Shown: positions 6,184 to 50,708 of the stretch, one piece after another | How positions within the stretch are numbered: the stretch's first letter is position 1 | Layout: every line of letters starts with the position of its first letter | Assembly (NCBI GenBank): GCA_014729395.1 | Contig: WJJZ01000006.1 | Location: forward strand, 7,090 to 71,089 | Length of the DNA stretch: 64,000 bases | Direction: 5' to 3' | DNA from: Candidatus Magasanikiibacteriota bacterium | GTDB lineage: Bacteria; Patescibacteriota; Patescibacteriia; Magasanikbacterales; UBA922 | Position numbers and translations under genes: made by a program | The notes under the pieces: generated by a model | Database searches by the model: none | What the model saw: only the letters and a program-made list of their open reading frames with translations | What the model was told of the DNA's origin: nothing

Positions 6184-8217
6184 ATGCATCGAAAAATAGA
6201 ACTATTGATAAAGGGGTTGATAGGGGCAAGTTTTATAATGCCTTTGATAGTAATTCCTTCTTCATATATATTTCCTTTTATTGTGCCAAAAATCGTCTTT
6301 TTTAGAACTTTGGTTCTAATAATGCTTGCCGCTTGTATTATTTTGTATGCAACGAATTTTAAAAAATATAAGACCGAATTTACACCAATCAATATAATTG
6401 TTGGATTGTTTTTTATAAGTTTTGCCATATCCACTTTTATAGGGGTGGATTGGTATAGGAGTTTTTGGGATAATCACGAAAGGATGCTTGGACTTTTCAC
6501 TATTTTTCATTATGTGGTTTTTTACTATATAGTCACTACTTTTATAAAAGAGTGGAAAGATTGGAAATGGCTGCTAAGACTATTTCTATTTACAGGATCT
6601 ATTGTAATGGTTATTGGTTTTTGGCAAAAATTAGTAAATCCGGAATTTCTTCTAAATCAAGGTAGTGGTCGTGTTTCATCAACTTTGGGGAATGCAATTT
6701 ATTATAGTGGATTTGGTCTGTTTTTAGCAGCGATAGGATATATTCTTGCGATAAAAGAGAAAATAAACACTGAATGGTGGTGGTATGCTGTTGTTGGTGC
6801 TGTTATCGGTCTTTTGGGAATGTTTTTAGGTGGGACGCGTGGTACATTCTTAGGTTTTCTGTTTGGCTTAATGGTACTAATTATTTCCTACCTTTTTACA
6901 ATAAGAGGACACAAGAAAGTTAAGCAAGTTTTAGCTGGAATCATGATTATTGGTGTTATTGTGATTGGGATAATGTATATTTATAGAGATACTGATTTTG
7001 TAAGAGATTTTCCGGCACTGGGAAGAGTTGTTAATATTTCTTTAAGCGGTGGCGGAGTTGAGACCAGGTTGATGGCATGGGATATTGCTGTAGAAGCATG
7101 GAAGGAAAATCCTGTCTTGGGCTGGGGACCGAATAATTTTTATTACGCTTTCAATAAATATTACAGACCTGAATTTTTGGAATATGGATACCAAGAAACT
7201 TGGTTTGATAATGCTCATAGTGCAGTATTAAATACATTAGCTGTTCAAGGTTTAGTCGGTTTGATTTTCTATCTGGGATTGTTTGCAATACCGCTATATT
7301 ACACATGGAGGAGTTACAAGAAAGACAAAATCGATGGTCATAGTTTGGGTATTATAAGCGCATTTTTGGTGGCTCATTTTATTCATAATGCTTTTGTTTT
7401 TGAAAATCCAACTTCTTATTTATATTTTTTCTTATTTTTAGCTTTTGTTAATTCCAGGGTTAGTAATGAAAAGAAAGAGGTTGAGGCATCCAAGCCGATT
7501 TCCATAGGCCTGAGTGTTACAGTTAGCTTGATAATATTATTGTTAATTTACTCAACAAATTATTATCCGGCCAAAGCAAACAAAATGAATTTGAATGTGA
7601 TCAGAGGACTTTATAGTGGGGCTGATATCGTTTCCTTGTATAATGAGGCCAGTGAAGTGCCAACACCACATATTGATGATATTAGGAATGATTTTGCCAG
7701 GACATCAGCTCAAGTTTTACCCAGTTATTTTCAAGGCGGTCAAGCTCAGGCCGGGATGAAAATTTTCGATTTGGCTTATGATGAGCTTAATAAAAATTTT
7801 TTATTGCATCCGGCAGATATAAGAATTCATATTCAACGAACACAGTTGTCTTTGCTGGGTGCGCAGATTAAACAAGACAAGAGTTACTTGCTTGATGGTG
7901 AAAGAATGCTGGAAGAAGCTTTGGAGTACTCCCCAAAAAGACAGCAAACTCATTATATGTTGTCTATTATAAAAGTTGAACTTGGAAAGACTGATGAGGC
8001 TATTGCCTTACTTCAAGACACCATAGAAGATAATCCGAAAGTCGGCGAGGGTTGGTGGAGGTTGGCTGTAATCTACAGAGATTCCGGGAATTTGGAAGAA
8101 GCAAAAAATGTATTACGCGAGGCAGAGGAGTACGGAGCCAGATTCAAAAAACAGGGACAAAATATCAAGAACGAAATATTATCTACGCCTGATCCAGAAG
8201 AGATCGATACAAACTAA
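6184..8217 (+). CDS. O-antigen ligase/polymerase-like (Wzy_C/WaaL family) polytopic membrane protein with C-terminal TPR repeats
   Basis: About 10-12 TM helices and a periplasmic loop with a W..NP.LGWG..NF motif typical of the O-antigen ligase family. The C-terminal ~200 aa are TPR-like. Confidence 0.55.
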   Translation: MHRKIELLIKGLIGASFIMPLIVIPSSYIFPFIVPKIVFFRTLVLIMLAACIILYATNFKKYKTEFTPINIIVGLFFISFAISTFIGVDWYRSFWDNHERMLGLFTIFHYVVFYYIVTTFIKEWKDWKWLLRLFLFTGSIVMVIGFWQKLVNPEFLLNQGSGRVSSTLGNAIYYSGFGLFLAAIGYILAIKEKINTEWWWYAVVGAVIGLLGMFLGGTRGTFLGFLFGLMVLIISYLFTIRGHKKVKQVLAGIMIIGVIVIGIMYIYRDTDFVRDFPALGRVVNISLSGGGVETRLMAWDIAVEAWKENPVLGWGPNNFYYAFNKYYRPEFLEYGYQETWFDNAHSAVLNTLAVQGLVGLIFYLGLFAIPLYYTWRSYKKDKIDGHSLGIISAFLVAHFIHNAFVFENPTSYLYFFLFLAFVNSRVSNEKKEVEASKPISIGLSVTVSLIILLLIYSTNYYPAKANKMNLNVIRGLYSGADIVSLYNEASEVPTPHIDDIRNDFARTSAQVLPSYFQGGQAQAGMKIFDLAYDELNKNFLLHPADIRIHIQRTQLSLLGAQIKQDKSYLLDGERMLEEALEYSPKRQQTHYMLSIIKVELGKTDEAIALLQDTIEDNPKVGEGWWRLAVIYRDSGNLEEAKNVLREAEEYGARFKKQGQNIKNEILSTPDPEEIDTN

Positions 8218-9424
8218 TTGTTCCTTCAATAAATTTATCAAAATCAGAATTCAAATTATTATACGCTTGAGCTGCATAGTTTTGCAGCTCTTGTTTATTT
8301 TGAAGAGCAAATTCAATTTTTTTATTTAAAACTTCGGGATTATTGGGTCGGCAGAGTAATCCGGTTTTTTTATCTTGTATGAGAGAACCAATACTCCCAA
8401 CGTCAGTGGCAATAATGGGAATTTTATAATTGATGGCCTCAAGGATAGTATAGGGCAGACCTTCTTTTCTGGATGGTAGGACAAACAGGTCAAAAGCCGG
8501 GAAAAGTTTGTAGGCTTTATCTATAAAGCCCGGAACTTCAACAATATTTTCAATTTTGGAATTTGATATTTGTATTTTGGAATTTTTGTATTCCGGGCCA
8601 TTGCCGATGATGACAAATTTTATATTTTTTGGAAGTCGATCTTTTTTGAGTGAAATAGCCTCTAATAATATATCGATACCTTTGGTTGGATAAAAATTGG
8701 CGATTGTGCCTATTAAAAAAGTATCTGACTCAATTTTATTTTTTAAAAAAGTATTCAGTTTTTTTCTGGCTTCTTGTTTTTTAAATTTATGTTTCGGCGG
8801 CTTAATTGCCAGCTTAATTAAGTCTAATTTTTCCGGTTTTATTTTTAAAATGTTTTTAGCATCAGAGAAATCTTTGTCTGATAGAGTTATGATTTTATCT
8901 TTAAATCGAGCTGTAAATTTTTCCGATGATTTGTAAAGACATTTTTTTAGTTTTGGTATTGGTTCATTAAAGACCCAGCCGTGAGCAGTGTAGACAATGA
9001 ACAGTGAACAATGAACAATGAACAATTTTGCGACTGAACCCAAGATGCCCGCCTTGGAGCTGTTTAAGTGGATTATATCCGGTTTTGTTTTTTTGTATAA
9101 TTTTTGTAATTCCAAAATTGCCAGTAGATCTTTTATTGGTGATATATGTCTAACTAAGTATTCAAGTTGAACTATTTTTATTTTTTGTTCTTTGTTTATT
9201 GTTCTCTGTTCATTGCCTGCCCTGAGCGAAATCCTGCCCTGGCGGGACGAAGTCGAAGGGTTAGTTGCTAGTTGTTTTTGTAAGTCAGTTTTGCCGTTTT
9301 TTTCACCCACAGCTACGGTAATATCAAAATATTTGTTTAAATTTACCGCCAAATCAAAAACATAACGCTGGGCGCCGCCCCAGTGACCTTGAGTGATTAT
9401 GAATAGGATTTTTTTCTTTTTCAT
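8183..9424 (-). CDS. GT4-family glycosyltransferase
   Basis: N-terminal ILFI...GGAQRYV, ...SSKAGILG...YTAHGW and C-terminal EGLPYTILEA...P.IATDVG motifs. Its 3' end overlaps convergently by 35 bp with the 6184..8217 CDS. Confidence 0.75.
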   Translation of the reverse strand: MKKKKILFIITQGHWGGAQRYVFDLAVNLNKYFDITVAVGEKNGKTDLQKQLATNPSTSSRQGRISLRAGNEQRTINKEQKIKIVQLEYLVRHISPIKDLLAILELQKLYKKTKPDIIHLNSSKAGILGSVAKLFIVHCSLFIVYTAHGWVFNEPIPKLKKCLYKSSEKFTARFKDKIITLSDKDFSDAKNILKIKPEKLDLIKLAIKPPKHKFKKQEARKKLNTFLKNKIESDTFLIGTIANFYPTKGIDILLEAISLKKDRLPKNIKFVIIGNGPEYKNSKIQISNSKIENIVEVPGFIDKAYKLFPAFDLFVLPSRKEGLPYTILEAINYKIPIIATDVGSIGSLIQDKKTGLLCRPNNPEVLNKKIEFALQNKQELQNYAAQAYNNLNSDFDKFIEGTISLYRSLLDQA

Positions 9425-9439
9425 GGTGTTTAGAAATGA

Positions 9440-9509: not shown

Positions 9510-10259
9510 ATGGTAAAAGTAGGTATAATTGGTGGATCAGGTTTGGAGGATCCGGATTTGCTAAAAAATATTCGAATTTTAAAAATCAAAACTCAATATG
9601 GGAAACCATCTTCATCTTTAAAAATTGGTAAAATAAATAATGTAGATGTGGTTATGCTTTCGCGGCATGGATCAGGGCATACAATTACACCATCCGGGGT
9701 AAATTACAGAGCAAATATATATGCCTTAAAGCTTCTGGGCTGTACTCATATCATTTCAACAACAGCAGTTGGTTCATTACGTACTAAAATACAAAGAGGT
9801 GATATTGTAATATTGGATCAATTTATTGATTTAACAAGATTCAGGACAATTACTTTTTTTGACAGGTTTAAACCACATAAAGCAAAACATACTCCTATGT
9901 CACAGCCTTTTTCTCCGTCATTAAGAAATTTTTTGATAGAAACAACACAAGAATTAGGAATTAAATTTCATGATAAAGGAACAGTTATAACTATCGAAGG
10001 GCCTAGATTTTCAACAAAGGCTGAGAGTTTAATGTTTCGGCAATGGGGGGCAGATGTTATTAATATGTCAATTGCTCCCGAAGTAATCTTGGCCAATGAA
10101 ATCGGTATTCCATATGCTTCCATTGCCATGAGTACGGATTATGATTGTTGGAAAGAGGGTGAAGATCCTGTGTCTTGGGAAGCTATAGTTGATATTTTTG
10201 AAAAGAACGTGGAAAAGGTTAAAAAAATTTTAATAAATACAATTTCTAAAATTAATTAA
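9510..10259 (+). CDS. mtnP: S-methyl-5'-thioadenosine phosphorylase (MTAP-type purine nucleoside phosphorylase)
   Basis: Near-collinear similarity to MTAP along the whole length (KIGIIGGSGL, YGKPS, LSRHG..HTI.PS.VNYRANI.AL, GADVINMS..PE, AMSTDYDCWKE). Confidence 0.85.
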   Translation: MVKVGIIGGSGLEDPDLLKNIRILKIKTQYGKPSSSLKIGKINNVDVVMLSRHGSGHTITPSGVNYRANIYALKLLGCTHIISTTAVGSLRTKIQRGDIVILDQFIDLTRFRTITFFDRFKPHKAKHTPMSQPFSPSLRNFLIETTQELGIKFHDKGTVITIEGPRFSTKAESLMFRQWGADVINMSIAPEVILANEIGIPYASIAMSTDYDCWKEGEDPVSWEAIVDIFEKNVEKVKKILINTISKIN

Positions 10260-10793
10260 ATGAATAAGATAATAAAACAAAAAATAAGGACAATTCCAAA
10301 TTGGCCTAAACAGGGGGTAATGTATAGGGATGTAACGACCTTATTTAAGGATAGGATTGGTTTTAAAATGGTAATAGATACTTTATTTGATAGATATAGA
10401 GAAAGTTCAATTGATTCTGTGGTAGGTATAGAGTCAAGAGGTTTCATTGTAGGTTCTGCAATTGCAGAGAGACTTGGTGTCGGTTTCGTACCAATAAGGA
10501 AATCAGGCAAGTTGCCGGCAGAGACAATCGGTGAAGAATATGAGTTGGAATATGGTAGGGATAAAATAGAAATTCATAAAGATGCAATATCAGAAAAAGA
10601 TACTGTTTTATTAGTTGATGATTTAATTGCAACCGGCGGTACAGCATTAGCGGCATGTTCACTTTTAGAAAGATTAAAAGCTCAGATAAGTGAATGTGTT
10701 TTTATAGTAGACCTACCAACTTTAGGTGGAAGCAAGAAATTATCAGATAAAGGATTTGGGGTTTTTAGTTTAGTTTCTTTTGATGGGGAATAA
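10260..10793 (+). CDS. apt: Adenine phosphoribosyltransferase
   Basis: PRPP-binding motif VLLVDDLIATGGT and the typical 177-aa length. The start abuts the mtnP stop. Confidence 0.85.
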   Translation: MNKIIKQKIRTIPNWPKQGVMYRDVTTLFKDRIGFKMVIDTLFDRYRESSIDSVVGIESRGFIVGSAIAERLGVGFVPIRKSGKLPAETIGEEYELEYGRDKIEIHKDAISEKDTVLLVDDLIATGGTALAACSLLERLKAQISECVFIVDLPTLGGSKKLSDKGFGVFSLVSFDGE

Positions 10794-10808: not shown

Positions 10809-11744
10809 ATGAATATTTTGATTACCGGAGGAGCCGGCTTTATCGGTTCTCATTTATGTGAAAGATTATTGACCGAAAAACATAAAATTTTTTGTTTGGA
10901 TAATTTGTTTACAGGTTCAAAAGATAATATAAATCATTTAGAAAATAATCCAAATTTTAAATTCATTGAGCATGATATAATTGAGCCTTTTTTTATTGAT
11001 CAAGATCTTGACCAAGTATATAATTTGGCCTGTCCGGCTTCTCCAATTCATTATCAAGAAAATCCGGTAAGAACCATTAAAGCCAATACTATCGGCGTTA
11101 TTAATATGTTGGGTCTAGCCAGAAAACATAATGCAAGAATATTACAAGCCTCCACTTCCGAAGTTTATGGTGATCCGGAAATTCATCCACAACCGGAGGA
11201 TTATCGTGGAAATGTAAATCAAATTGGACCACGAGCCTGTTATGACGAGGGAAAGCGGGCGGCCGAAGCCTTATTTTTTGACTATCATAGGATGCACGGG
11301 ATGGAAATAAAAGTTGCTCGTATTTTTAACACCTATGGATCCAGAATGGCTTTTGAGGATGGCAGGGTTGTGTCAAATTTTATTTTGCAATCTTTAAAGG
11401 GTGAGAATATTACAATATACGGTAGCGGTGAACAGACAAGAAGTTTTTGTTATATAGATAATTTGGTGGATGGTTTGATAAAAATGATGAATAGTCCAAA
11501 AGAAATTACAGGACCAATAAATTTAGGTAATCCAAATGAATTTACAATAAAACATTTGGCAGAAAGAGTAATTAATTTAACCGGTTCAAAAGCTAAATTA
11601 GTTTATAAGGATCTACCTCAAGACGATCCACAAAAGAGACAGCCAGATATTAACAAAGCCAAGGAATTTTTGGGTTGGTCACCAAAGATTGATTTAGTAG
11701 AAGGTCTTGAGAAGACGATTGAAGATTTTAAAAATAGATTATGA
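10809..11744 (+). CDS. UDP-glucuronate decarboxylase (UDP-xylose synthase, UXS type)
   Basis: Very close full-length match to UXS enzymes ([56 protein letters not shown]...[31 protein letters not shown]). Confidence 0.85.
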
Positions 11745-12886
11745 ACGGTAAAAAGATTTTAATTTTTTCCACCGCGTATTTTCCTCTTATTGGCGGGGCG
11801 GAGGTAGCAGTAAAAGAGATAACGGATAGAATGAATGGTTATGATTTTGATATGATAACTTGTCGAATGAACAGAAGTTATCCGAAGCAAGAAAAAATTG
11901 GCAATGTCAATGTGGTTCGCATAGGACCGGGCGTACCTTTATTGGATAAAATATATCTGGCATTTTTTGGTCACAGAAAAGCCTTAAAACTGCACAAACA
12001 GAATAACTATTGTTTGGTTTGGTCGATAATGGCGAGTTTCGGTGGTTTTGCCGCTTTGCGTTTCAAAGAGTTAACTAATGTTAAATTTTTGTTAACTTTG
12101 CAAGAAGGTGACTCGATTGATTATATTTTAAAGCGAGTTAGGTTTTTGAAGAAGAGATTCAAACAAATTTTTGTCAAGGCCGACAGCCTTCATGCTATCA
12201 GTAATTATTTGTTGAAATGGGGAAAAGACATGGGTTTTCAAGGAAAGATCGCTAAAGTAATTCCAAATGGGGTGAATGTTGAACAATTCGCAGCTAACAA
12301 TTCGCAGCTATCAGATTACACTGGTCAGACTAGGGCTGAATTAGATATAAACAGCGATGATAAATTAGTTATAACAGTTTCTAGATTGGTAGAAAAGAAT
12401 GGGGTGGGGGATTTGATAAAGGCAATGGAAAAATTACCGGAAAATGTAAAGTTATTGGTGGTGGGGAGTGGTAAACTGGAGCAAGAATTAAAAAATTTGG
12501 CACGGCATTTGAGCTTAGATAAACGTGTTTATTTTTTAGGATTTGTTCGACATGACCAATTGCCAAAATATCTATGGGCGAGTGATGTTTTTTGTCGACC
12601 TAGTCTTTCCGAAGGTCTGGGTAATGTTTTTTTGGAAGCCATGGCAGCAAAAGTTCCGGTAGTGGGCACATTAGTCGGTGGAATTCCGGATTTTTTGGAT
12701 GACGGCGAGACAGGTTTTGTGTGTAAGCCGGGGAATCCGAGGAGTATTGCCGAAGTTATAAAAAAGGTAATTAATTTAGCGCATGAGAAAAAAAAGGAAA
12801 TAGAAAAAAACTCAATTGATCTTGTGCGTAAAAAATATAATTGGGAAGATATTACTAAAAAAATGGAAGAGTTAATGCAGGTTTAA
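11741..12886 (+). CDS. GT4-family glycosyltransferase
   Basis: C-terminal [28 protein letters not shown] motif. 4-bp overlap with the upstream gene. Confidence 0.75.
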
Positions 12887-12981: not shown

Positions 12982-13899
12982 ATGAAGAGGGCACTTTTGA
13001 TTAATCCACAGTTTAATATAGCAAAGGAGAATTATGACAGCTCAATTTCAGTTGGGCTTTTGAGTATTGCGTCGTATTTGGATAGTAAAGGGATAGGAGT
13101 AAAAATTGTTGATTGCGTACGCGAGACCAACTATTTAAAAAAAATAAGAAAATATGCCCGCAGTACTGATTATGTCGGGATTTCTGTAATGACAACGCAA
13201 TTGTCAAATGCTTTACGTTTATCAAAGCTTGTAAAAAAAGTTAATCCCTCTTGTAGAGTAGTGTGGGGCGGACCACATGCAACTTTTTTTAAGGAGCAAT
13301 GTGTCGAATCAAAATTTGTAGATATGGTATGTGTAGGAGAAGGCGAAGAGACTTTTTATGAAATTGTAAATGGTGTTGATCCGGAGAAAATTTTAGGAAT
13401 CGTTTATAAAAAAGATGGGGACATAAAAAAAACTTCGGCTCGACCTTTGCACGATCCTACAAAAATGCCTTTGTTTAATTGGGATTTGATCGCACCGGAG
13501 GTTTTATATAATTTAAAACTTGTCCCCACTCTCACTTCAAGAGGCTGCCCCCATATATGTTCTTTTTGTATCAACGCCATCCTTAAATTAAAGTGGCGTC
13601 AGAGAACAGCGGAACAGGTACTTGTGGATTTGGAAGTGATAAAAAGTAAAACATATTTTAAAGGTAAAAAGTTAAGATTTTGGGATGAGAATTTTTTTGT
13701 TGATATTAAGCGCGCCAAAACCATAGTAAAGGGAATGATAGAAAGAAATCTTATCACTCCGTGGGAGACAACAGTCCGCGCCAATTATATACGGGATGGG
13801 ATGATTGATAACGCTTTTTTAAAGGATATTAAACAAAGTGGTTGTTATCTGTTATCATTTGGTGCGGAATCCGGTTGTCCCAGAATTTTAAAAAAATAA
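12982..13899 (+). CDS. B12-binding radical SAM protein, N-terminal part (cobalamin-binding domain plus CxxxCxxC cluster RGCPHICSFC). It ends at a TAA inside an A7-T-A8 run.
   Basis: B12-binding-like N-domain followed by the radical SAM cysteine triad. The reading frame is interrupted at 13897-13899. Confidence 0.65.
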   Translation: MKRALLINPQFNIAKENYDSSISVGLLSIASYLDSKGIGVKIVDCVRETNYLKKIRKYARSTDYVGISVMTTQLSNALRLSKLVKKVNPSCRVVWGGPHATFFKEQCVESKFVDMVCVGEGEETFYEIVNGVDPEKILGIVYKKDGDIKKTSARPLHDPTKMPLFNWDLIAPEVLYNLKLVPTLTSRGCPHICSFCINAILKLKWRQRTAEQVLVDLEVIKSKTYFKGKKLRFWDENFFVDIKRAKTIVKGMIERNLITPWETTVRANYIRDGMIDNAFLKDIKQSGCYLLSFGAESGCPRILKK

Positions 13900-14426
13900 A
13901 AAAAATGATTGATCCAAAGGATATCATTAGGTCAGCAAAAATGTGCTTAAAACATGATATTATCCCCCAATATTCTTTTATGATAGGCTTGCCCGGTGAA
14001 GAAAAGAATGAGATGATGGAGACATTGAAATTGATTGATAAATTAGTAAAATTGAGTTCCAAAGTTCAAATTTTAGGCCCACAGGCTTTTAGGCCATACC
14101 CGGGTTCTGAGCTATATGAGGAGTGTGTAATGTCTGGTTGGAAAGCACCGGAAACCCTTTATGAGTGGTCTGATTTGGTTGAAAATGAATTAAATTATTT
14201 GACTGTACAAAATTTCCCCTGGGTTAAACATAAGGATTTTGTGGAATCCATGGAAGCTTATGTAAGATTTGGAGCTCACAATATCAAAAGTGCTTTGGGT
14301 TCAACAGTTAGTAGTAATAAATTATTGAAATTGAGTTTTATTTTGCTATGTAAACTACGCTGGAAATTAAAATTTTTTAATTGGCCAGTTGAATTTAAAT
14401 TAGCTAAAAAGTTTGTTAGTAAATAA
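13842..14426 (+). CDS. C-terminal continuation of the same B12-binding radical SAM protein in the -1 frame (interrupted gene, pseudogene, sequencing indel or recoding site)
   Basis: From ...KKIKKMIDP onward the translation continues the radical SAM domain (IGLPGEE...). Joining at the A-run gives ...ESGCPRILKKIKKMIDP.., a normal ~500-aa B12-rSAM. Confidence 0.55.
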   Translation: MLSVIIWCGIRLSQNFKKIKKMIDPKDIIRSAKMCLKHDIIPQYSFMIGLPGEEKNEMMETLKLIDKLVKLSSKVQILGPQAFRPYPGSELYEECVMSGWKAPETLYEWSDLVENELNYLTVQNFPWVKHKDFVESMEAYVRFGAHNIKSALGSTVSSNKLLKLSFILLCKLRWKLKFFNWPVEFKLAKKFVSK

Positions 14427-41501: not shown

Positions 41502-41504
41502 AAT

Positions 41505-42847: not shown

Positions 42848-43765
42848 ATGTCACATTATCTAGTAACAGGAGGTGCCGGTTTTATTGGCACAAACTTGGT
42901 AAAAAAATTACTTTCAGACGGTCACAAAGTGCGCGTTATTGATAATTATGCCGGTGGTAAAAAAGAAGAGAGAATTCAGCCCGGTGCGGAATATATTGAG
43001 GGTGATATAAGAGATGAGGCTGATTTGGAAAAAGCTTGTTCCGGAGGCATTGATGGCATTTTTCATTTAGCTGCTCTGCCGAGGGTAACTTATTCTGTGG
43101 AAAAACCATGGGAAACGCATGACGTGAACGTAAACGGTACTTTAAAATTGTTACTGGCTGCCAAAGAGCACGGCATAAAAAGATTGGTGTTTTCATCTTC
43201 TTCGTCCACTTATGGAGCTGAAGAAAAAGAATTGTTGTCTGAAGACGACAAAATAAAAAAACCAATCAGTCCTTATGCTCTGCATAAATTGATAGGTGAG
43301 CATTACTGCCGGTTGTTTTCAGAGTTGTATGATTTACAAACAGTAAGTCTAATATATTTTAATGTTTACGGCCCTTATTTTGATCCGGATGGAGCTTATG
43401 CCCTTGTAATTGGAAAATTTTTAAAACAAATCAAAGAAGGAAAGCCAATGACCGTCTGTGGGGATGGGGAATATTATCGTGATTATACACATGTTGATGA
43501 TGTGGTAAAAGCCAATATTCTGGCTATGACGAATGACAATGTGGGAAAGGGTGAGACTATAAATATTGGTAACGGCAAGCCAACCACTGTTAATGAATTG
43601 GTTAGTATAATCGGCGGTCCTCATGAATTTATTCCACCTAGACCCGGTGACCCACGTTTTTCCGGGGCTGATAATACCAAAGCAAAAAAACTCCTTGGTT
43701 GGGAGCCGACAATAAAGCTTGAAGATGGAATAGCGGAATTGAAGAAGGAGATGGGTTTAGAATAA
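42848..43765 (+). CDS. NAD-dependent nucleotide-sugar epimerase/dehydratase (WbpP/TviC-like 4-epimerase candidate)
   Basis: [12 protein letters not shown], a YxxxK (SPYALHK) catalytic motif and 305 aa. Confidence 0.65.
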   Translation: MSHYLVTGGAGFIGTNLVKKLLSDGHKVRVIDNYAGGKKEERIQPGAEYIEGDIRDEADLEKACSGGIDGIFHLAALPRVTYSVEKPWETHDVNVNGTLKLLLAAKEHGIKRLVFSSSSSTYGAEEKELLSEDDKIKKPISPYALHKLIGEHYCRLFSELYDLQTVSLIYFNVYGPYFDPDGAYALVIGKFLKQIKEGKPMTVCGDGEYYRDYTHVDDVVKANILAMTNDNVGKGETINIGNGKPTTVNELVSIIGGPHEFIPPRPGDPRFSGADNTKAKKLLGWEPTIKLEDGIAELKKEMGLE

Positions 43766-43857: not shown

Positions 43858-45249
43858 CTACTGTCCCATCATCCTGACAACCACATTTACAGTTCGAAGT
43901 AATATAGACAGGTCGAGCAAAGCCGATCTGTTTTTTATATAATAAAGATCATATTGTAGTTTTTGTAATGAATCTTCTAAGGTATCGGTATATGATTGAT
44001 GTATTACAGCCCAACCGGTAAGCCCCGGTCTTACAGTATGGCGCAAAGGATAGTATGGCATTTTTTCTTCCAATTTTTTTGTTATTTCCGGCCTTTCAGG
44101 TCTGGGTCCTATTAGTGTTATATCTCTTTTTAACAAATTCAAACACTGCGGCAGTTCGTCCAGTCTTGTTTTACGTAAAAATTTTCCTGTTACGGTTATA
44201 CGCTTGTCATTTTTTTTGGCAAACTGAAAACCATCTATTTCAGCACTGCCATCAGTAGATAAGGCATACATGGATCTGAATTTATACATGGTAAATACCA
44301 AGCCATTCTTACCGACTCTCTTCTGTTTAAAAAAGATCGGTCCTTTTGAATTTATTTTTATTGCAAGTGCAACCAGTGGAAATAAAATTACAAAAAATAG
44401 AGCAAAAATTAATCCCGCACTAAAATCCATAAGGATTCTGAATTTATTGTAAATCGGCTGGTCGCTATTTTTTAAATGTTCCAAAAACCAACCCTCGGAA
44501 AAAACAGTTGGCGTGATTCTACCGGTAATGATTTCATAGAATGTTGGTGTGTCGGTAATATTGACATCCCAAAAAAGAAGTTCATACAATTCTCGAAGAG
44601 CCTCAGAATTTTTTTGTAATTGTGGCGCAATTACAACCAGTTGAGCCGATCTGGTTGAAATTACGGGTCTAATTGTATGCAAACCATGATAAATATCCAA
44701 ATCCGGATATTCATCGCTTCTGATTGTGTGATCGGGATCAATAAAAGCTATGATCTTATAACCTTTTTTAGGGTGTTTTTGAAGGGTATCGATAATTTCC
44801 GGGGTTTCGCGAGTACTGCCAACCATCACAACTTTTGTAACTAATTTTTTTGATCCTACAAATTTATTATATAGAAATCTCCAAAGAGCACTTAAGCTGT
44901 ATCCGAATATAATATTAAGTAATAAAATGGTTTTTGGACTTATTCTTGTGCCGGTAACCAGGTAAAAAAATATCACGCTGATTACAAGAGACATGATAGC
45001 GACCTCAACAAAACGTCTGTAAAATTTCCTATCGTTGGCCTGTTTTGATAAATCATAAAGTCCGTTAATATAATTTACAGTCAACCATAATAAAAAAACT
45101 ATGGAAAAAATAGCCGCATTGTATTCAATGCTTTGCCAAATTGGCAGTTGAAAATGCCTGATGGTGAGACTTAGACCAAGAGCCAACAAAAAAGCAGCCA
45201 AGTCACCGCCCATCAGTATGAATTGTTTTATTCTGTAAATAATTCTCAT
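43858..45249 (-). CDS. Initiating polyprenyl-phosphate sugar-1-phosphate transferase (WbaP/PglC bacterial sugar transferase family)
   Basis: N-terminal TM helices, then a C-terminal KRVGKNG..F..YKFRSM...DELPQ..N.L.G.MTLIGPRP catalytic domain. Confidence 0.8.
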   Translation of the reverse strand: MRIIYRIKQFILMGGDLAAFLLALGLSLTIRHFQLPIWQSIEYNAAIFSIVFLLWLTVNYINGLYDLSKQANDRKFYRRFVEVAIMSLVISVIFFYLVTGTRISPKTILLLNIIFGYSLSALWRFLYNKFVGSKKLVTKVVMVGSTRETPEIIDTLQKHPKKGYKIIAFIDPDHTIRSDEYPDLDIYHGLHTIRPVISTRSAQLVVIAPQLQKNSEALRELYELLFWDVNITDTPTFYEIITGRITPTVFSEGWFLEHLKNSDQPIYNKFRILMDFSAGLIFALFFVILFPLVALAIKINSKGPIFFKQKRVGKNGLVFTMYKFRSMYALSTDGSAEIDGFQFAKKNDKRITVTGKFLRKTRLDELPQCLNLLKRDITLIGPRPERPEITKKLEEKMPYYPLRHTVRPGLTGWAVIHQSYTDTLEDSLQKLQYDLYYIKNRSALLDLSILLRTVNVVVRMMGQ

Positions 45250-45341
45250 AAATCAATAATGGAATTTAACCATAAAATCAGTCAAAATTCAATACCCTGT
45301 AAACATTGATTAAATGCTTATTTAAAGTTATAATAATAGAT

Positions 45342-47345
45342 ATGACTGAGTTAATCAAAAAAAGAATAATATTTTTCTTGACTTTTTTTATTTTAAGTTT
45401 GTTTTTCGGATTGTTAAAACCGGTACAAGCTTTTTTTCCGAATGATGAATATGTTGAGCAATGGGCATATAGTGATACTAAGGTATATGAAGCTTGGAAT
45501 TATGCTACCGGTACCGAAGATGTTGTAGTAGCCATAATTGATAATGGTTTTGATACTTTTCATCCGGATATTAGAGAAAACGCGTGGAAAAATGAAGATG
45601 AAATTGAATACAATGGAATCGATGATGACGCCAACGGTTACATTGATGATGTATGGGGTTGGAATTTTGTTAATGATAATAATATTCCAAGACCAAATGT
45701 ATCCAGATTAACAGATGAAGAAAGACAAAGGGGCGTTTTTAATCATGCAACCGCAATAGCCGGGATAATAGGTGCGGCCGGCAATAATGCTAAAGATGGT
45801 GTCGGATTGAATTGGAAAGTAAAATTGATGAATCTAAAAGCTCTTGGCAATAGCGGTAGTGGTGACATGAGCAAAGTTTATGAAGCGATCATTTATGCGG
45901 TTGATAACGGAGCGGATATAATCAATATCAGTGTGGTTGGTTATGCTGCCGAAGAGTTGAAACAGGCAATCAAATATGCCTATGACAATAATGTACTCGT
46001 TTTTGCAGCCGCCGGAAACGAGGATATTTTTTTTGAAAATATTTTAAGATATCCGGTTTGTGCCGATCTGGGAGAAGATGAACAATGGGTAATCGGAGTG
46101 AGTGCGGTTGATTCCAGGCATTTTATTGCCCCTTTTTCAAATTATGGTGCAGGGTGTATTGACATTACCGCTCCCGGAGTTGATATCGCCAGTACCCTAA
46201 GGTATTCACCAACAAATGGTTTAAGTGAGAGATTTGGTGGTAGTTGGAGCGGCACTTCATTTGCGGTTCCTTTTGTTAGTGGTGCGGCGGCATTGGTAAA
46301 GTCGGTACAACCGGATTGGGGACCAAAACAAATCTATAATGTATTATTAAATTCGGTTCATCACACACCCGGTCAGAATGAAGAAGCATATGCACACCTT
46401 TTTGGAGCCGGACTGTTGCAGATTGATACGGCTGTAAAAACAGCTTTGGGAGAAAATCTTTACAGTCATTCTATAAAGAGTATAAGCTTGTTTAATAGTC
46501 TGGAGAGTAATTTGGTTAAAATAGACGGCTTTGCTTCTCCTGTGATAAATGAAAAAACTCCCGATTTGAGTAATATTTATGATATGGATGTTTTTAGAAA
46601 TGATAATGGCAAGCTTGGTTATGTTACTATTGAGCGACACAAAAAAGGTTTAGCAAAAGTAAATATATATGATAATAATTGGGTTTTAATTGATAGTTGG
46701 TTGACTGAATCCTGGGGTAGAATGACCATAAAAGTTGCCAATGTTGCTGTTGAGAATGGTGATGAGATTATCATATCACCAAAATTTTTTGACAATGAGG
46801 TTTTTAGAGTACTGAATTTTAGCGGTCAAGAAATTGGTAGTTATGAATTACTAGGATCTCATCGGGGTGTAAGTTTATCTTTTATTGACACGGATAATTC
46901 TTTGCAGCATATTTTGGTAAAATATCGATTTGACGATTTGGTCAGATTTGAGGAATTTAATTATTCCTTTGAAAAAATTAATAGTATTGATCTGCCATTT
47001 TTGAAGGATAATGGCTCTATAGATAGTGGTGATATAGATGGTGATGGGGAGCAGGAAATTGTTGTTTCAGCCAGTGAAGGCGATGCCCCTTTTATTGCCT
47101 ATTATGAAAGGGATGGAACTATGATAAAAAGATTTTTCAGTTATGATTTATCAGTACGGGGCGGAGTGCAAATAGTGGTAAGCGATGTTAATAATGATGG
47201 TAAAGATGACATATTAAGCATTAATAGAACAGGCCGAGATGAAGTTATTAAAGTGTGGGATGAAGAGGGCAAGAAAATTGACGAATTAAATTTTACATAC
47301 GAAGGGACTACACCCATATGGAAAATATTAATTAGCAAACAATAA
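45342..47345 (+). CDS. Secreted S8 subtilisin-like serine peptidase with a C-terminal FG-GAP/VCBS-like repeat region. The ATG at 45342 gives a signal peptide; the ORF opens at TTG 45306.
   Basis: Catalytic triad motifs VAIIDNGFD (Asp), NHATAIAGIIGA (His) and GTSFAVPFVSGAAAL (Ser). The C-terminal DGDGEQEIVV / NNDGKDDIL repeats are VCBS-like. Confidence 0.75.
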   Translation: MTELIKKRIIFFLTFFILSLFFGLLKPVQAFFPNDEYVEQWAYSDTKVYEAWNYATGTEDVVVAIIDNGFDTFHPDIRENAWKNEDEIEYNGIDDDANGYIDDVWGWNFVNDNNIPRPNVSRLTDEERQRGVFNHATAIAGIIGAAGNNAKDGVGLNWKVKLMNLKALGNSGSGDMSKVYEAIIYAVDNGADIINISVVGYAAEELKQAIKYAYDNNVLVFAAAGNEDIFFENILRYPVCADLGEDEQWVIGVSAVDSRHFIAPFSNYGAGCIDITAPGVDIASTLRYSPTNGLSERFGGSWSGTSFAVPFVSGAAALVKSVQPDWGPKQIYNVLLNSVHHTPGQNEEAYAHLFGAGLLQIDTAVKTALGENLYSHSIKSISLFNSLESNLVKIDGFASPVINEKTPDLSNIYDMDVFRNDNGKLGYVTIERHKKGLAKVNIYDNNWVLIDSWLTESWGRMTIKVANVAVENGDEIIISPKFFDNEVFRVLNFSGQEIGSYELLGSHRGVSLSFIDTDNSLQHILVKYRFDDLVRFEEFNYSFEKINSIDLPFLKDNGSIDSGDIDGDGEQEIVVSASEGDAPFIAYYERDGTMIKRFFSYDLSVRGGVQIVVSDVNNDGKDDILSINRTGRDEVIKVWDEEGKKIDELNFTYEGTTPIWKILISKQ

Positions 47346-47349
47346 AAAT

Positions 47350-48375
47350 ATGCCAAATGACAAACCAATTTTTGAAAAAAAGAATATTTTAGTAACAGGG
47401 GGTGCGGGTTTTTTGGGCTCCCATCTATGCGAAAAATTATTGGAGTCGGGAAAAATAATATGTATGGATGATCTTTCAAACTCTTCGATTCAAAATATTG
47501 ACCACTTGTTGCAATACCCAGACTTTGAGTTCATAAAATATAATGTTAACGAACCGATTGACCTATCTGCTTTCGAAGAATTGGATAAATTTAGGATAAA
47601 ATATCAGGGCATTCAAGAGATCTATCATTTGGCATGTCCAACAAGCCCAAAGAATTTTGAAGATTTAAAAATTCATTCATTAAAAGCAAATTCAAATTCA
47701 GTTATAAACACATTGGAATTATCTGCGAAATACAAAGCTAAATACTTGTTTGCTTCCAGTTCGGTCGTATACGGAGACGCAACAGAAGAAAATTCTATGT
47801 TTTCCGAAGATTATGAGGGAAGGGTAAATCATTTGTCTCCGCGAGCTTGTTATGATGAGGGGAAAAGATTTGCGGAAACTTGTGTAGCTACTTACAAACA
47901 GGTTTATAATATAGATGCCAATATTGCCAGGATTTTTACCACCTATGGTCCGAGAATGAAACTGCGGGATGGTCTTCTTATTCCTGATTTTATCCTGGAT
48001 GCGCTCGATGGTCGTGATTTGGTAATATACGGAGATGAAACTTTGACTCAATCTCTATGTTTTGTGTCTGATATGATCGATGGTCTGGTAAGGTTGATGA
48101 ATTCTGACGAGAGTGTTTCTATTGTAAATTTAGGTTCAGATCAAATTGTTAAAATGGCTGATGTAGCGCGTAAGATTATCGAGATGACCGATTCCAGCTC
48201 AAAAATTATTTTTGAAGAGCCATTGATGTTTTTGACAAAAAAAGGTACTCCGGATTTGCGTACGGCAAAAGAGCAGCTGGGTTGGATACCGCTTGTCAGA
48301 CTGGAAGATGGTTTGAAAAAAACTATTGATTATGCTATAGCAAATAGAGAGATATTAACTTTAAATAACAAATAA
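47350..48375 (+). CDS. UXS/ArnA-like NAD-dependent UDP-sugar decarboxylase/dehydratase (second copy, divergent)
   Basis: VTGGAGFLGSHL, SSVVYGD and [14 protein letters not shown]...ARIFTTYGPRM motifs. Confidence 0.65.
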   Translation: MPNDKPIFEKKNILVTGGAGFLGSHLCEKLLESGKIICMDDLSNSSIQNIDHLLQYPDFEFIKYNVNEPIDLSAFEELDKFRIKYQGIQEIYHLACPTSPKNFEDLKIHSLKANSNSVINTLELSAKYKAKYLFASSSVVYGDATEENSMFSEDYEGRVNHLSPRACYDEGKRFAETCVATYKQVYNIDANIARIFTTYGPRMKLRDGLLIPDFILDALDGRDLVIYGDETLTQSLCFVSDMIDGLVRLMNSDESVSIVNLGSDQIVKMADVARKIIEMTDSSSKIIFEEPLMFLTKKGTPDLRTAKEQLGWIPLVRLEDGLKKTIDYAIANREILTLNNK

Positions 48376-48376
48376 T

Positions 48377-49036
48377 ATGCTAGTTGCGGTTGTACCGGCT
48401 TACAACGAAGAAAAACGAATAGGTTCCGTCATCCGGGACCTTTTTGAGCATGTTGATAAAGTACTAGTGGTTGACGATGCTTCTACTGACAACACGTTCC
48501 AAGAGGCTCGTAAAGCCGGTGCGATAGTTTTGAAGCATGTTTTGAACCGAGGTCAGGGTGCAGCCCTGCAAACGGGTCATGAGTATGCTAATATTATAGG
48601 CGCAGACTATGTAATTCATTTTGATGGTGACGGTCAGTTCAGTACCAAAGATATATCCGGTGCCATGCAACACATGCAAGAAGCTGAAGTTGATGTTTTA
48701 TTGGGTTCCAGATTTTTACAAAAAAAATCTAACATACCGTGGTTTAAAGCCAAAATTCTTTTGCCTCTCGGCAGAATAATAAATAATTTATTTAGTGGAT
48801 TGAAATTGTCTGATGCTCATAATGGTTTTAGAATCTTAAACAGAAAGGCGTTTAATAAAATTAAAATTAATCAAGATAGAATGGCCCATGCAACTGAGAT
48901 ACCGGCACAAATAAAAAAATATAATTTGAAATATGTTGAATTTCCCATTGAAGTTAAGTATTATGAATATGGACAAAACATGGCCGGTGGTTTTAAAATA
49001 TTAAGAGATTTATTATTGGGTAAATTTTTGAGATAA
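48377..49036 (+). CDS. Small GT2 glycosyltransferase (Dpm1/GtrB-like catalytic domain only)
   Basis: AVVPAYNEE, VVDDASTD and HFDGDGQF motifs. 219 aa with no TM tail. Confidence 0.65.
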   Translation: MLVAVVPAYNEEKRIGSVIRDLFEHVDKVLVVDDASTDNTFQEARKAGAIVLKHVLNRGQGAALQTGHEYANIIGADYVIHFDGDGQFSTKDISGAMQHMQEAEVDVLLGSRFLQKKSNIPWFKAKILLPLGRIINNLFSGLKLSDAHNGFRILNRKAFNKIKINQDRMAHATEIPAQIKKYNLKYVEFPIEVKYYEYGQNMAGGFKILRDLLLGKFLR

Positions 49037-49152
49037 ATCAGGTATTGAATTTTAAATTTCGAATTTTGAATTTAGAATCAATTTTGAATAATTTAATTTA
49101 TAATTAAGTTATTAGTAATTCAATCAAAATTCAAAATTTTAAATTCAAAATT

Positions 49153-49482
49153 ATGTTAATCTTATTTCAAATTTTGTTCATACTTTTTGCCGGTTTTGCG
49201 GTTTTTAATGTTATTTCTCGCAAGCGGAGTGGTCTACTTGGTCAGAGAGCGGTATTTTTTTGGATATTTTTTTGGATTTTGGGTGTGATTGTGGTGATCT
49301 GGCCGAATAGTAGTTCTATTTTAGCGGCATATTTGGGAATAGGTAGGGGAACCGATTTGGTAATATATATTTCTTTGGCTTTGCTTTTTTTCTTGGTATT
49401 TAAATTAAATGTTAAGTTGGACTCACTAAATCGTGATTTGACAAAAATAGTAAGAAAAGACGCATTGGATAATAATGAATAA
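49153..49482 (+). CDS. Small membrane protein with three TM helices, DUF2304-like. This family often partners small GT2 enzymes.
   Basis: 109 aa and hydrophobic. Assigned by position next to the GT2 and from recalled family features. Confidence 0.35.
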   Translation: MLILFQILFILFAGFAVFNVISRKRSGLLGQRAVFFWIFFWILGVIVVIWPNSSSILAAYLGIGRGTDLVIYISLALLFFLVFKLNVKLDSLNRDLTKIVRKDALDNNE

Positions 49483-49562
49483 CTTGGTAGTAAGTTGTAG
49501 AGTTGTAAGTAGTAAGTTAAAAAATTTATAACTCTAGAACTTTCTACTTACAACTGTTAGAT

Positions 49563-50708
49563 ATGAAAATAGGTCAAATAGTTTCCACATATCCGCCATA
49601 TTACGGAGGTATGGGTAATGTGGTTTTTCAAACCGCATCTGAATTGGCAAGACAGGGTCATGAGGTTGAAGTTTTGACACCTCAATACAAAGAACCTATA
49701 AAAAAAGAGGTGGAGTTCGCACGTCGCCTTCGCCCCAGTTTGCGTTATGGTAATGCGGCCAGACTTGGAAATATTGCAAAACATTTGGATGAATTCGATT
49801 TGGTGCATTTACACTATCCTTTTTTTGGTACAGCCAATATAGTTAGAAGATGGAAAAAGAAAACAAATAAACCTTTGGTTTTGACTTATCATATGGACAC
49901 GAGAGCCCCGGGGTGGAAAGGTTTGATTTTCAAAATGTATGCCAAATTTTGGATGCCAAAAATATTAGAAGTAGCCGATAAAATTATTGTCAGTTCATTT
50001 GACTATGCAAATGCATGTGATGCTTCAGAGATATACAAAGAAAATAAAGAAAAATGGACAGAATTACCCTTTGGAATCGATACAAATCGTTTTCAAGCTC
50101 GTAATAAACCGGAGGCTCTACTCAAAAGATATGGTTTAAATCCGGACATCCCAACAATTTTATTTGTTGGTGCTATGGATAGAGCACATTATTTCAAAGG
50201 TATACCCGATTTACTCAAGGCTTTAACTATTACCAAACAAAAAGATTTTAATTTTCAATGTATATTTATCGGAGATGGTGAACTTAAAAACAACTATGAA
50301 ATGAAAGCCAGGGGTCTGGGTCTTTCCAAAGAAGTCAGGTTTATCGGTTTTGTAACAGACGAAGAATTGCCATATCATTACAATCTCGCTGATTTATTTG
50401 TCTTACCATCCACTAGTGCAAACGAAGCATTTGGTATGGTACTACTCGAAGCAATGGCCAGCTCAGTACCGGTAATAGCGTCAGATTTGCCGGGTGTTCG
50501 TCAAGTGGCTCAAGACGGGGGTATTACGGTCCCGTATAAAAAGCCCTTGCTTTTATCTGACGAAATAATTATTTTTTTAAATTATTCGGTGCAAGAAATG
50601 AAGGAATTCAAGAGAAATGTTAGGATTATCACGGAAAAAAAATATGCCTGGCCGCAAATAGCAATAAATTTGGAAAAAATTTATAACAGCTTGTTGACTA
50701 AATATTAA
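49563..50708 (+). CDS. GT4-family glycosyltransferase
   Basis: STSANEAFGMVLLEAMASSVPVIASDLPG motif and N-terminal KIGQIVSTYPPYYGG. Confidence 0.75.
   Translation: MKIGQIVSTYPPYYGGMGNVVFQTASELARQGHEVEVLTPQYKEPIKKEVEFARRLRPSLRYGNAARLGNIAKHLDEFDLVHLHYPFFGTANIVRRWKKKTNKPLVLTYHMDTRAPGWKGLIFKMYAKFWMPKILEVADKIIVSSFDYANACDASEIYKENKEKWTELPFGIDTNRFQARNKPEALLKRYGLNPDIPTILFVGAMDRAHYFKGIPDLLKALTITKQKDFNFQCIFIGDGELKNNYEMKARGLGLSKEVRFIGFVTDEELPYHYNLADLFVLPSTSANEAFGMVLLEAMASSVPVIASDLPGVRQVAQDGGITVPYKKPLLLSDEIIIFLNYSVQEMKEFKRNVRIITEKKYAWPQIAINLEKIYNSLLTKY

Follow-up and report, generated by a model that had tools for sequence, protein, structure and literature searches.

A candidate sulfated-glycan locus with eight predicted sulfotransferases in a Candidatus Magasanikbacteria genome

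Described sulfated-glycan loci and the Magasanikbacteria locus

In the xss (synechan) locus of Synechocystis sp. PCC 6803, eight glycosyltransferases and two sulfotransferases correspond to the eight sugars and two sulfates of each unit, and this match of gene numbers to stoichiometry is a precedent for reading gene counts in the same way elsewhere (PMC8205485). A putative sulfated glycosaminoglycan (GAG) cluster has also been described in Pontiella sulfatireligans F21, which makes a sulfated GAG-like exopolymer (PMC7356697). Here we analysed a 64,000-nucleotide stretch (hereafter the window) of a Candidatus Magasanikbacteria metagenome-assembled genome (MAG; assembly GCA_014729395.1, contig WJJZ01000006.1). 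Eight of ten proteins of the window were recovered by exact sequence, all in this one MAG (locus tags GF349_019xx-021xx) and on a contig of 107,222 bp; ST2 (below) belongs to the MAG as well. About 44 kb of this small genome (positions 6184-50708) is predicted to be given to building surface glycans, and eight predicted sulfotransferases, ST1 to ST8, lie among the glycosyltransferase genes. We consider it about 70% probable that the locus is of the lipid-carrier (Wzx) type and that it makes at least one surface glycan that is acidic and multiply sulfated. NCBI places Candidatus Magasanikbacteria in the Patescibacteria/Parcubacteria group, which bears out the guess of a Candidate Phyla Radiation (CPR) host made in an earlier reading of the DNA from its letters alone (the sequence-only reading).

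The locus resembles xss in its general plan, a Wzx/Wzy-type locus (the Wzy being a candidate here) in which sulfotransferases of distinct subfamilies that depend on 3'-phosphoadenosine 5'-phosphosulfate (PAPS) are interleaved with about eight glycosyltransferases. The number of sulfotransferases differs, with two in xss and four times as many, eight, here. In addition, xss has a polysaccharide co-polymerase (PCP; XssK), an outer-membrane polysaccharide export (OPX) protein and the regulators XssQ, XssR and XssS, whereas the open reading frames (ORFs) of the window show no domain of a STAND regulator, of a response regulator/histidine kinase, of a PCP or of an OPX protein (domain absences here and below were judged with Pfam over ORFs of at least 100 aa). 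The comparison with xss suggested by the sequence-only reading therefore holds for sulfotransferases within a Wzx/Wzy glycosyltransferase cluster and not for the regulators, PCP and OPX. Unlike xss, the locus contains an internal cysC gene, a cysQ-like gene and a side module with a GT-C transferase, and its host is a monoderm CPR bacterium rather than a cyanobacterium.

The Pontiella cluster shares with the window a richness in family 2 and family 4 glycosyltransferases (GT2 and GT4), a PF13469 sulfotransferase, a methyltransferase, a polyprenyl-phosphate GT2, a GT-C-like YfhO protein and GtrA-like proteins; it differs in holding one sulfotransferase, with three in the genome, and in its host, a 7.4-Mb member of the Kiritimatiellae (Verrucomicrobiota) (PMC7356697). 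The same sulfotransferase subfamilies and the same GT4-sulfotransferase pairs as in the window were found in several loci for which we found no literature description, namely L005, L086, L087/L007 ('Saccharibacteria' CAYMTT01) and L088. In the DNA seen, L005 has six sulfotransferases, L086 three to five and L088 three, all fewer than the eight of the window.

According to the authors of the xss study, there had been no report of a sulfated polysaccharide from other bacteria (PMC8205485), and sulfated polysaccharides outside cyanobacteria are still considered rare in bacteria. Full-text literature searches that combined sulfotransferases with the CPR or Patescibacteria retrieved unrelated papers only. 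A metagenomic survey of the potential for sulfated exopolymeric substances in microbial mats names, in the passages that deal with sulfotransferase-carrying MAG lineages, cyanobacteria, Proteobacteria, Myxococcota, Planctomycetes and others; those passages mention no lineage of the CPR (PMC9723792). A Wzx-type glycan cluster with embedded PAPS-dependent sulfotransferases is already known from xss, and putative sulfated-GAG clusters from Pontiella. What is new is the set of eight enzymes from at least five subfamilies, the CPR host, the internal cysQ-cysC-cysH-like set without an ATP sulfurylase in the window, and glycosyltransferase-sulfotransferase pairs that recur across uncultured genomes.

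Eight predicted sulfotransferases in two classes

All eight ORFs that the sequence-only reading had named as sulfotransferases were recovered in our ORF map at the same positions: ST1 (16629-17477), ST2 (18592-19320), ST3 (19357-20232), ST4 (20341-21213), ST5 (28137-28967) and ST6 (28951-29850) on the forward strand, and ST7 (34295-35233) and ST8 (36879-37826) on the reverse strand. Each reached the Pfam gathering score for Sulfotransfer_1 and/or Sulfotransfer_3, the test that we applied. The best match was to Sulfotransfer_3 for ST1 (56 bits), ST3 (110 bits) and ST5 (48 bits) and to Sulfotransfer_1 for ST4 (57.5 bits), ST6 (75.5 bits), ST7 (74.5 bits), ST8 (77 bits) and, marginally, ST2 (23.8 bits against a cut-off of 22). 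When the eight were aligned, the Gly of the 5'-phosphosulfate-binding (PSB) loop and the Arg of the 3'-phosphate-binding (3'-PB) motif were invariant, and a Ser followed about 8 residues beyond the Arg in every protein. The PSB-loop Lys/Arg is present in seven of the eight, with His in its place in ST5. The residues on which the sequence-only reading had made PAPS binding depend are thus largely in place, and a P-loop kinase identity was ruled out by the profile matches, the motifs and a fold search with ST2 (below). These findings support the eight as PAPS-type sulfotransferases with predicted activity.

A phmmer search with the eight as queries retrieved no ninth sulfotransferase among all ORFs of the window. 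No membrane segment or signal peptide was predicted in any of ST1-ST8, which fits the use of cytoplasmic PAPS on a lipid-linked intermediate prior to flipping. Recent tandem duplication as the origin of the set was ruled out, since pairwise identity among the eight is at most 43% and ST5, ST3 and ST2 have orthologs in other genomes that are closer than their paralogs in this locus. Comparison of the proteins instead places them as old paralogs of at least five subfamilies. Three of them (ST2, ST3 and ST8) carry the PGAP label 'hypothetical protein'.

ST4, ST6, ST7 and ST8, which we refer to as class A, are mutually 33-43% identical (43% between ST7 and ST8). A profile built from these members and their homologs had as its top match an uncharacterised bacterial sulfotransferase structure (3rnl, E 1.5e-48), followed by the heparan sulfate (HS) 3-O-sulfotransferases (3-OSTs) 5, 1 and 3 (E 5e-28, for 3-OST-5, to 3e-25) and the NDST sulfotransferase domain (E 6e-24), with cytosolic SULTs far behind. 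ST6 alone aligned with HS 3-OST-1 over about 185 residues (E 6e-17), and the aligned motifs pair IGVGTPRSGTTW with IIIGVRKGGTRAL, KETHFFD with NEVHFFD, TPSYY with TPAYF and LRNPVDRALSDY with LRDPSERVLSDY. The Glu of NEVHFFD is the catalytic base of 3-OST-1. A KE followed by an aromatic-rich stretch (a KE.HFF-type motif, KEIHFF in the HS-sulfotransferase-like ST4) is retained in all four class A enzymes.

Class A has in common with the animal HS 3-OSTs and NDST domains (1zrh, 3uan, 1t8u, 3bd9, 1nst) the motifs that define the fold, the PSB loop, (K/N)E.HFF and RNP.(D/E)R..S over about 185 residues. Identity to these enzymes is low, and class A proteins are predicted to be cytoplasmic and soluble whereas the animal enzymes are Golgi-lumenal. 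A C-terminal extension shared with the bacterial structure 3rnl further distinguishes class A from them. These matches place class A with the HS 3-OST/NDST-like carbohydrate sulfotransferase clade, and a putative GAG acceptor for class A is supported by context alone, namely the predicted uronic-acid and N-acetyl-uronic-acid dehydrogenases of the locus (below).

The other four, ST1, ST2, ST3 and ST5 (class B), are 25-27% identical to one another or have no detectable similarity. ST1 has the PSB loop GYARSGHS and an RNP...S motif. ST3 is weakly nearest to TPST and the CurM sulfotransferase, and its closest named relatives are from Parcubacteria and Nomurabacteria. ST2 is the most weakly scoring of the eight, and it was on this divergent protein that the fold test against P-loop kinases was made. 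A search of 5.8 billion clusters gave its family only 15 members, and for none of them has a Pfam domain been precomputed; GR.GSS.L and Arg126 are invariant among the members and Ser134 nearly so. An AlphaFold (AF2) model made from the family alignment had a confidence (pLDDT) of 88.5. In a Foldseek search of this model against the PDB, the 19 best matches were all sulfotransferases (TM about 0.5), namely olefin-synthase and CurM sulfotransferase domains, SULTs, TPST2 and StaL, and P-loop kinases ranked below them. The modelled fold of ST2 is thereby confirmed as that of a sulfotransferase.

The PSB loop of ST5 reads GSGHCGSTLL, with His in the Lys/Arg position. This His and a CxC...CxFW motif are conserved in subfamily members from a CPR-like genome, two Marinimicrobia and a Burkholderiales MAG; besides ST5 itself, the members are at L005 15278-16126, L056 8141-9112, L023 2261-3073 and L076 15311-16342. 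Conservation of the His in orthologs across phyla marks it as a trait of the subfamily rather than a defect, and CxC...CxFW is possibly a metal site.

Relatives of these enzymes are found in many CPR genomes. ST8 has 223 homologs at E <=1e-5, with named sources that include Magasanikbacteria, Nealsonbacteria, Paceibacterota, Peregrinibacteria and 'Patescibacteria group', and also Chitinophagales and Gammaproteobacteria. Searching a class A alignment against one genome per GTDB species, a set that does not include the present MAG, gave 299 confirmed relatives, and the best 80 of these include many CPR MAGs (Magasanik-, Sacchari-, Paceibacter- and Kaiserbacteria, WWE3, Peribacteraceae) together with Pacearchaeota, Methanocaldococcus indicus, Gammaproteobacteria, Verrucomicrobiota and others. 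Homologous sulfotransferases lie in glycan loci of Magasanik-, Sacchari-, Paceibacter-, Kaiser- and Nealsonbacteria, WWE3 and Peregrinibacteria MAGs. Of the loci, 73 are at least 10 kb long, nearly all of them chosen by a class A sulfotransferase; in 52 of these a GT4/GT2 homolog lies at most 10 kb away, and 27 have at least three such homologs.

Sulfotransferase ORFs were counted by phmmer over 85 loci and the window, which gave eight for the window, six for L005, four each for four loci and one for most. The eight of the window are the highest number among the 89 sequences compared (the window and 88 loci); the compared loci are at most 21 kb long against 64 kb for the window, but seven or eight fit within a 21-kb span of the window. 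The expectation that such a locus would be very unusual for a CPR genome is therefore upheld for the number of enzymes and not for their presence. Sulfotransferase-bearing glycan loci are common in CPR, loci of this kind include L088 and the six-member L005, and only the number is exceptional here.

Several of these loci preserve particular gene neighbourhoods. In L005 (GCA_023659355.1, JAGXPN010000001.1; 6875-19061), six sulfotransferases within 14 kb alternate with GT4 genes, as do three to five in L086 (GCA_054013255.1; 10001-19527). Orthologs of the GT4 gene at 17491 (38-43% identity) adjoin an ST3-type gene in L086, L005 and L087, and orthologs of the GT4 gene at 29835 (37-46%) directly adjoin an ST5-type gene (46-52%) in L086 and L005. 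L088 (GCA_964433095.1) is syntenic with the window from a MopE-repeat gene through the Wzy_C-TPR gene to the first sulfotransferases: the MopE-repeat gene is followed by orthologs of the Wzy_C-TPR gene (61%), the opposite-strand GT4 (50%) and the epimerase (71%), four GT4 genes, a methyltransferase, an ST2 ortholog (66%), an ST4-like sulfotransferase (46%), a GT4 and another sulfotransferase, the last of the three before the contig ends. Sulfotransferase genes also abut the Wzx gene in L001 and L003. That old subfamilies have their own orthologs, and that at least two of them travel with a particular GT4, is the strongest sequence-level argument for acceptors that are sugars added by those transferases.

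Two further observations concern these relatives. L086 contains a weak sulfatase-family match and a GT11 fucosyltransferase-like gene. In Methanocaldococcus indicus (L018, NZ_CP186926.1, 5611-10912), a class A homolog (46% identity over 200 residues) lies within 5 kb of Sat-like and CysC genes, and this cultured hyperthermophilic methanogen may be a tractable organism for this sulfotransferase family.

Sulfate activation and glycan assembly genes

Three genes related to sulfate activation lie, all on the forward strand, between ST8 and the nucleotide-sugar genes. They are inside the locus, not directly flanking it as the sequence-only reading had it. The first (37927-38733) encodes a CysQ-like 3'(2'),5'-bisphosphate nucleotidase, predicted to remove 3'-phosphoadenosine 5'-phosphate (PAP) (Inositol_P, 182 bits); its best NCBIfam match is CysQ (TIGR01331, 192 bits, under the equivalog cut-off of 228.8). 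The second (38744-39280) encodes CysC, the adenylyl-sulfate kinase predicted to convert adenosine 5'-phosphosulfate (APS) to PAPS (APS_kinase, 208 bits; NF002059, 253.6 against a cut-off of 244). The third (39284-39913) encodes a CysH-like protein of the APS-reductase type, with a PAPS_reduct domain (NF002537, 157.5 bits against a cut-off of 154), the iron-sulfur cysteines CC and CKPC, and as its best PDB match 7lhr, deposited as 'phosphoadenosine phosphosulfate reductase'.

The CysH-like protein ends in FERAGQ, about 12 residues early, without the C-terminal ECG(L/I)H that contains the catalytic Cys. All nine of the nearest relatives examined have this tail, and no ECGLH remnant was seen past the stop when 39840-40140 was inspected in all three frames. 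Without it, the protein, whose gene the sequence-only reading had named cysH, is unlikely to be a working reductase and should not complete the reductase cycle. The loss of the tail would fit a sparing of APS and PAPS for sulfation. We considered two other roles. That of a CysD-type ATP sulfurylase subunit is not supported, with CysD models at 62-76 bits against cut-offs of 195-413 and the CysH model passing. A supply of sulfite to a UDP-sulfoquinovose synthase was rejected, as the three short-chain dehydrogenases/reductases (SDRs) of the locus reach only 40-42 bits against the NF041015 cut-off of 575. The closest cluster representatives of the CysH-like protein (P0252 and P0253) are CysN-type GTPases fused to a PAPS_reduct domain, an architecture that is not known to us from the literature.

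The proposal that PAPS supply and PAP removal are tied genetically to the glycan genes stands in so far as an APS kinase and a CysQ-like phosphatase are in the locus; the step before them has no gene here, as neither Pfam nor phmmer with a Sat-CysC query found an ATP sulfurylase (Sat/CysDN) in the window. Related CPR loci have a Sat-CysC fusion, Sat and CysC, or CysD and a CysN-CysC fusion beside sulfotransferases. In the rhizobial NodH/NodPQ and mycobacterial Stf0/CysDNC systems, one sulfotransferase occurs with a full ATP sulfurylase and APS kinase. The window shares with them the genetic linkage of sulfate-activation genes to a carbohydrate sulfotransferase, and differs in that an APS kinase, a PAP phosphatase and a crippled reductase homolog are what is linked.

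A perfect long palindrome lies at 39960-40050, between the cysH-like and UDP-glucose dehydrogenase genes, and consists of two inverted TTCCCGCGAAAGCGGGAA copies, each itself a hairpin. It may be a strong terminator or a mobile-element remnant. No other copy was found in the window, and a REP-like repeated element was rejected on the basis of this single occurrence.

Pfam and NCBIfam recovered the three GT2 enzymes, GT-C transferase, Wzx flippase, initiating sugar-phosphate transferase and nucleotide-sugar enzymes named by the sequence-only reading, and reduced its count of at least nine GT4 genes to eight. These are at 8183-9424 on the reverse strand (Glycos_transf_1, 122 bits) and, on the forward strand, at 11741-12886 (148 bits), 14432-15556 (144 bits), 15553-16626 (140 bits), 17491-18576 (94 bits), 29835-31025, 31022-32092 and 49563-50708 (113.8 bits). 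A soluble GT2 gene (33426-34298, +; Glycos_transf_2, 139.8 bits) and a methyltransferase fused to a TOD1/MUCI70 glycosyltransferase-like domain (32089-33429, +) add to the set.

Sugar precursors are represented by two nucleotide-sugar 6-dehydrogenase genes (40113-42809, +), one UDP-glucose dehydrogenase-like and the other a TviB-like UDP-GlcNAc dehydrogenase (TIGR03026, 269 and 397 bits, above cut-off; TviB model 445 bits for the latter, under its cut-off of 592). Both are predicted to supply uronic acids. A GalE/TviC-like 4-epimerase gene follows (42848-43765, +), and the locus has three SDR epimerases/dehydratases in all, among them a nucleotide-sugar epimerase/dehydratase at 10809-11744 (+; Epimerase, 174 bits, best NCBIfam matches all below cut-off). 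The initiating polyprenyl-phosphate glycosylphosphotransferase of WbaP/WcaJ type (43858-45249, -) has five membrane segments (Bac_transf, 197 bits; TIGR03025, 345.9 against a cut-off of 295.6). The Wzx-type flippase gene (35573-36823, -; Polysacc_synt, 75 bits against a cut-off of 28.2) is flanked by ST7 and ST8. At the left end lies a candidate polymerase or ligase of 677 aa (6184-8217, +), a membrane protein for which 12 helices are predicted and which combines a Wzy_C domain (76.8 bits) with C-terminal TPR repeats.

Other genes may modify the product. They encode an S-adenosylmethionine (SAM) methyltransferase (24508-25038, +), a glutamine amidotransferase (GATase_7) fused to a WbuX-like N-acetyl-sugar amidotransferase region (25045-27036, +; TIGR03573, 111 bits, below the cut-off of 203) and a radical SAM/SPASM enzyme (27023-28090, +) with all NCBIfam matches far under cut-offs. 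We rejected the last as an anaerobic sulfatase-maturating enzyme, as it gave no such match and the window has no sulfatase. An A7-T-A8 tract (13885-13905) breaks a B12-binding radical SAM gene (12982-14426, +) into two ORFs that overlap and lie in different frames, and the two match consecutive parts (46-314 and 311-434) of the HpnJ profile; the break may come from an error of assembly, or it may mark a pseudogene or a site of slippage.

The array at 9510-34298, with 25 co-directional genes, gaps of at most 108 bp and many overlaps of 4-17 bp in the ORF map, reads as one operon. The analysis itself shows the family assignments, the motifs, the predicted topology, the order of the genes and their conservation between genomes; from these we infer the following route, together with its order of steps, its acceptor, how many sulfates each unit carries, what becomes of the unit and where the APS comes from. 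The two dehydrogenases and the epimerases would provide UDP-uronic acids and their N-acetylated forms. The WbaP-type transferase would begin the chain on undecaprenyl phosphate, and the eight GT4 enzymes, the one soluble GT2 and the TOD1-like enzyme would lengthen it at the cytoplasmic face. During extension, the eight soluble cytoplasmic sulfotransferases would move sulfate from PAPS to the chain, each probably acting on the residue added by a particular glycosyltransferase. CysC would make PAPS from APS, and the CysQ-like phosphatase would clear the inhibitory product PAP. Further groups would be attached by the methyltransferases and the amidotransferase. Wzx would then flip the finished unit, which the Wzy_C-TPR protein would polymerise or ligate to an acceptor, and a trio of GT2, flippase-like and GT-C proteins would attach a further sugar outside the membrane.

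Several points weigh against a lipid-carrier locus for multiply sulfated surface glycans. The class B enzymes are remote from any characterised carbohydrate sulfotransferase, and protein tyrosine or polyketides are the substrates of the solved enzymes nearest to them. The window yielded no Wzz/PCP chain-length regulator, no LCP ligase and no export component, and it also lacks the ATP sulfurylase noted above. The truncated cysH-like gene and the frameshifted radical SAM gene could mean some decay. Finally, the host genome is a MAG, and the case has been built from sequence only.

It is possible, though we find it doubtful, that the locus is a composite in which two or more separate glycoconjugates share the eight sulfotransferases and no single glycan is multiply sulfated. 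The locus holds at least two assembly modules, each with a candidate polyprenyl-phosphate-sugar step. One is the trio at 21275-24503, comprising a GT-C (PMT_2) membrane glycosyltransferase with at least six hydrophobic segments (21275-22690, +; PMT_2, 44.9 bits), a flippase-like membrane protein (22694-23629, +; LPG_synthase_TM / TIGR00374) and a GT2 that is a candidate polyprenyl-phosphate-sugar synthase, with two C-terminal membrane segments at residues 221-289 (23616-24503, +; Glycos_transf_2, 101.7 bits). The other lies in a set comprising an SDR epimerase/dehydratase, a short GT2 and a small DUF2304 membrane protein with three membrane segments (47350-49482, +; GT2 and DUF2304 at 48377-49482). 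On the two strands together, the sulfotransferases form three groups (16.6-21.2 kb, 28.1-29.9 kb and 34.3-37.8 kb). The locus is broken up by housekeeping genes and a subtilase gene, and the syntenic L088 retains the anchor genes with a different inner content. These features are set against a single Wzx, a single initiating transferase, a single Wzy_C protein and the one-operon appearance of the 9510-34298 array. Multiple sulfation is the most economical reading of the locus, in keeping with the earlier suggestion of a glycan sulfated at many positions; the 'sulfation code' of eight sulfates on one glycan is an extrapolation, given two or more assembly modules.

The product may also be a sulfated oligosaccharide rather than a polysaccharide. 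In that case the Wzy_C-TPR protein would work as an O-oligosaccharyltransferase or a ligase does and move the chain en bloc either to a lipid anchor or to surface proteins, such as the S-layer, pilin or the neighbouring MopE-repeat lipoprotein. Among solved structures, the Wzy_C part of this protein is closest to the WaaL-type ligase 7tpg (E 7e-7), not to a polymerase, and this, together with the missing chain-length regulator, makes a ligated or protein-linked oligosaccharide equally possible. The Wzx/Wzy-type pathway predicted by the sequence-only reading is accordingly borne out for Wzx and the initiating transferase, and a polymer is left as one candidate product. The best, though weak, NCBIfam match of Wzx is an 'O-glycosylation flippase', and a Cys/Asp-rich lipoprotein gene adjoins the Wzy_C-TPR gene both here and in L088. 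However, the Wzy_C domain does not separate polymerases, ligases and oligosaccharyltransferases, about 12 glycosyltransferases are many for a protein-linked glycan, and the acceptor is only putative. En bloc transfer of this kind seems unlikely.

The lipoprotein gene in question (1868-5059, -) encodes 1063 aa with Cys/Asp-rich MopE 'putative metal-binding' repeats, and its product may accept the glycan or act as its partner. It has 54% G+C within a contig of 30-38% G+C, and the occurrence of a MopE-like gene in the same position beside Wzy_C-TPR in L088 indicates that the high-G+C gene is not a misassembly. Across about 14-38 kb, the sulfotransferase/glycosyltransferase core, G+C is 27-33%, compared with 34-39% on either side; lower G+C is common in horizontally exchanged, variable surface-polysaccharide loci. 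Genes unrelated to glycans within the locus encode a purine/uridine nucleoside phosphorylase and a phosphoribosyltransferase for nucleotide salvage (9510-10793), with no counterpart at the matching place in L088, and a subtilase with FG-GAP repeats (45306-47345). The right flank is housekeeping (PilB-like ATPase, PBP2, Mur ligase, HU, RNase Y, TruB and a transketolase-like protein). It includes tRNA-Glu(CTC) and tRNA-Met(CAT) genes at 55959-56346, and a 111-aa ORF (55973-56308) is spurious because it overlaps both.

Remaining alternatives and significance

Some of the sulfotransferases, especially class B, might instead act on acceptors other than glycans, for example peptide tyrosine, lipids or small molecules. 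Among solved structures, the best matches are to TPST1/2, to the CurM and olefin-synthase sulfotransferases and to SULTs, each with a weak score, and the radical SAM/SPASM and B12-radical-SAM genes of the same operon are of types frequent in peptide maturation. We consider this explanation quite improbable. ST3-type and ST5-type genes repeatedly adjoin particular GT4 genes in other genomes, the ST2 ortholog of L088 lies between a methyltransferase and a class A sulfotransferase within a run of GT4 genes, and no precursor peptide, polyketide or lipid genes were seen. That sulfation is inoperative, with the locus partly decayed and the sulfotransferases relics, is very improbable despite the absence of an ATP sulfurylase from the window, the truncated cysH and the frameshifted radical SAM gene, as none of the eight sulfotransferase ORFs is disrupted, nor are the genes for CysC and the CysQ-like protein, and all of them keep their catalytic motifs. 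The frameshift in the homopolymer tract may have arisen during assembly, and losing the CysH nucleophile would save APS/PAPS for sulfation rather than end it.

More speculatively, and with doubts of our own, we raise the possibility that CPR bacteria, and possibly DPANN archaea, possess undescribed and widespread modular cassettes of a glycosyltransferase plus its cognate sulfotransferase, and that their expansion to eight cassettes here would build a hypersulfated, uronic-acid-rich, GAG-like coat with at least four sulfates per repeat. If so, no prokaryote with a denser sulfation machinery would be known. An episymbiont of the 1-Mb genome class may use such a coat for attachment to, or interaction with, its host, and the APS may come from outside the cell, as only the kinase step is encoded in the locus.

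The missing ATP sulfurylase in the window and the crippled CysH pose a testable question about the origin of the activated sulfate. The compact, predicted soluble HS-sulfotransferase-like enzymes, with their conserved glycosyltransferase partners, are candidates for chemoenzymatic sulfation. If a lipid-carrier locus for multiply sulfated glycans is the correct reading, heavily sulfated surface glycans would enter a major uncultured radiation, and the locus offers a hypothesis for how episymbionts may come to have a highly charged surface.

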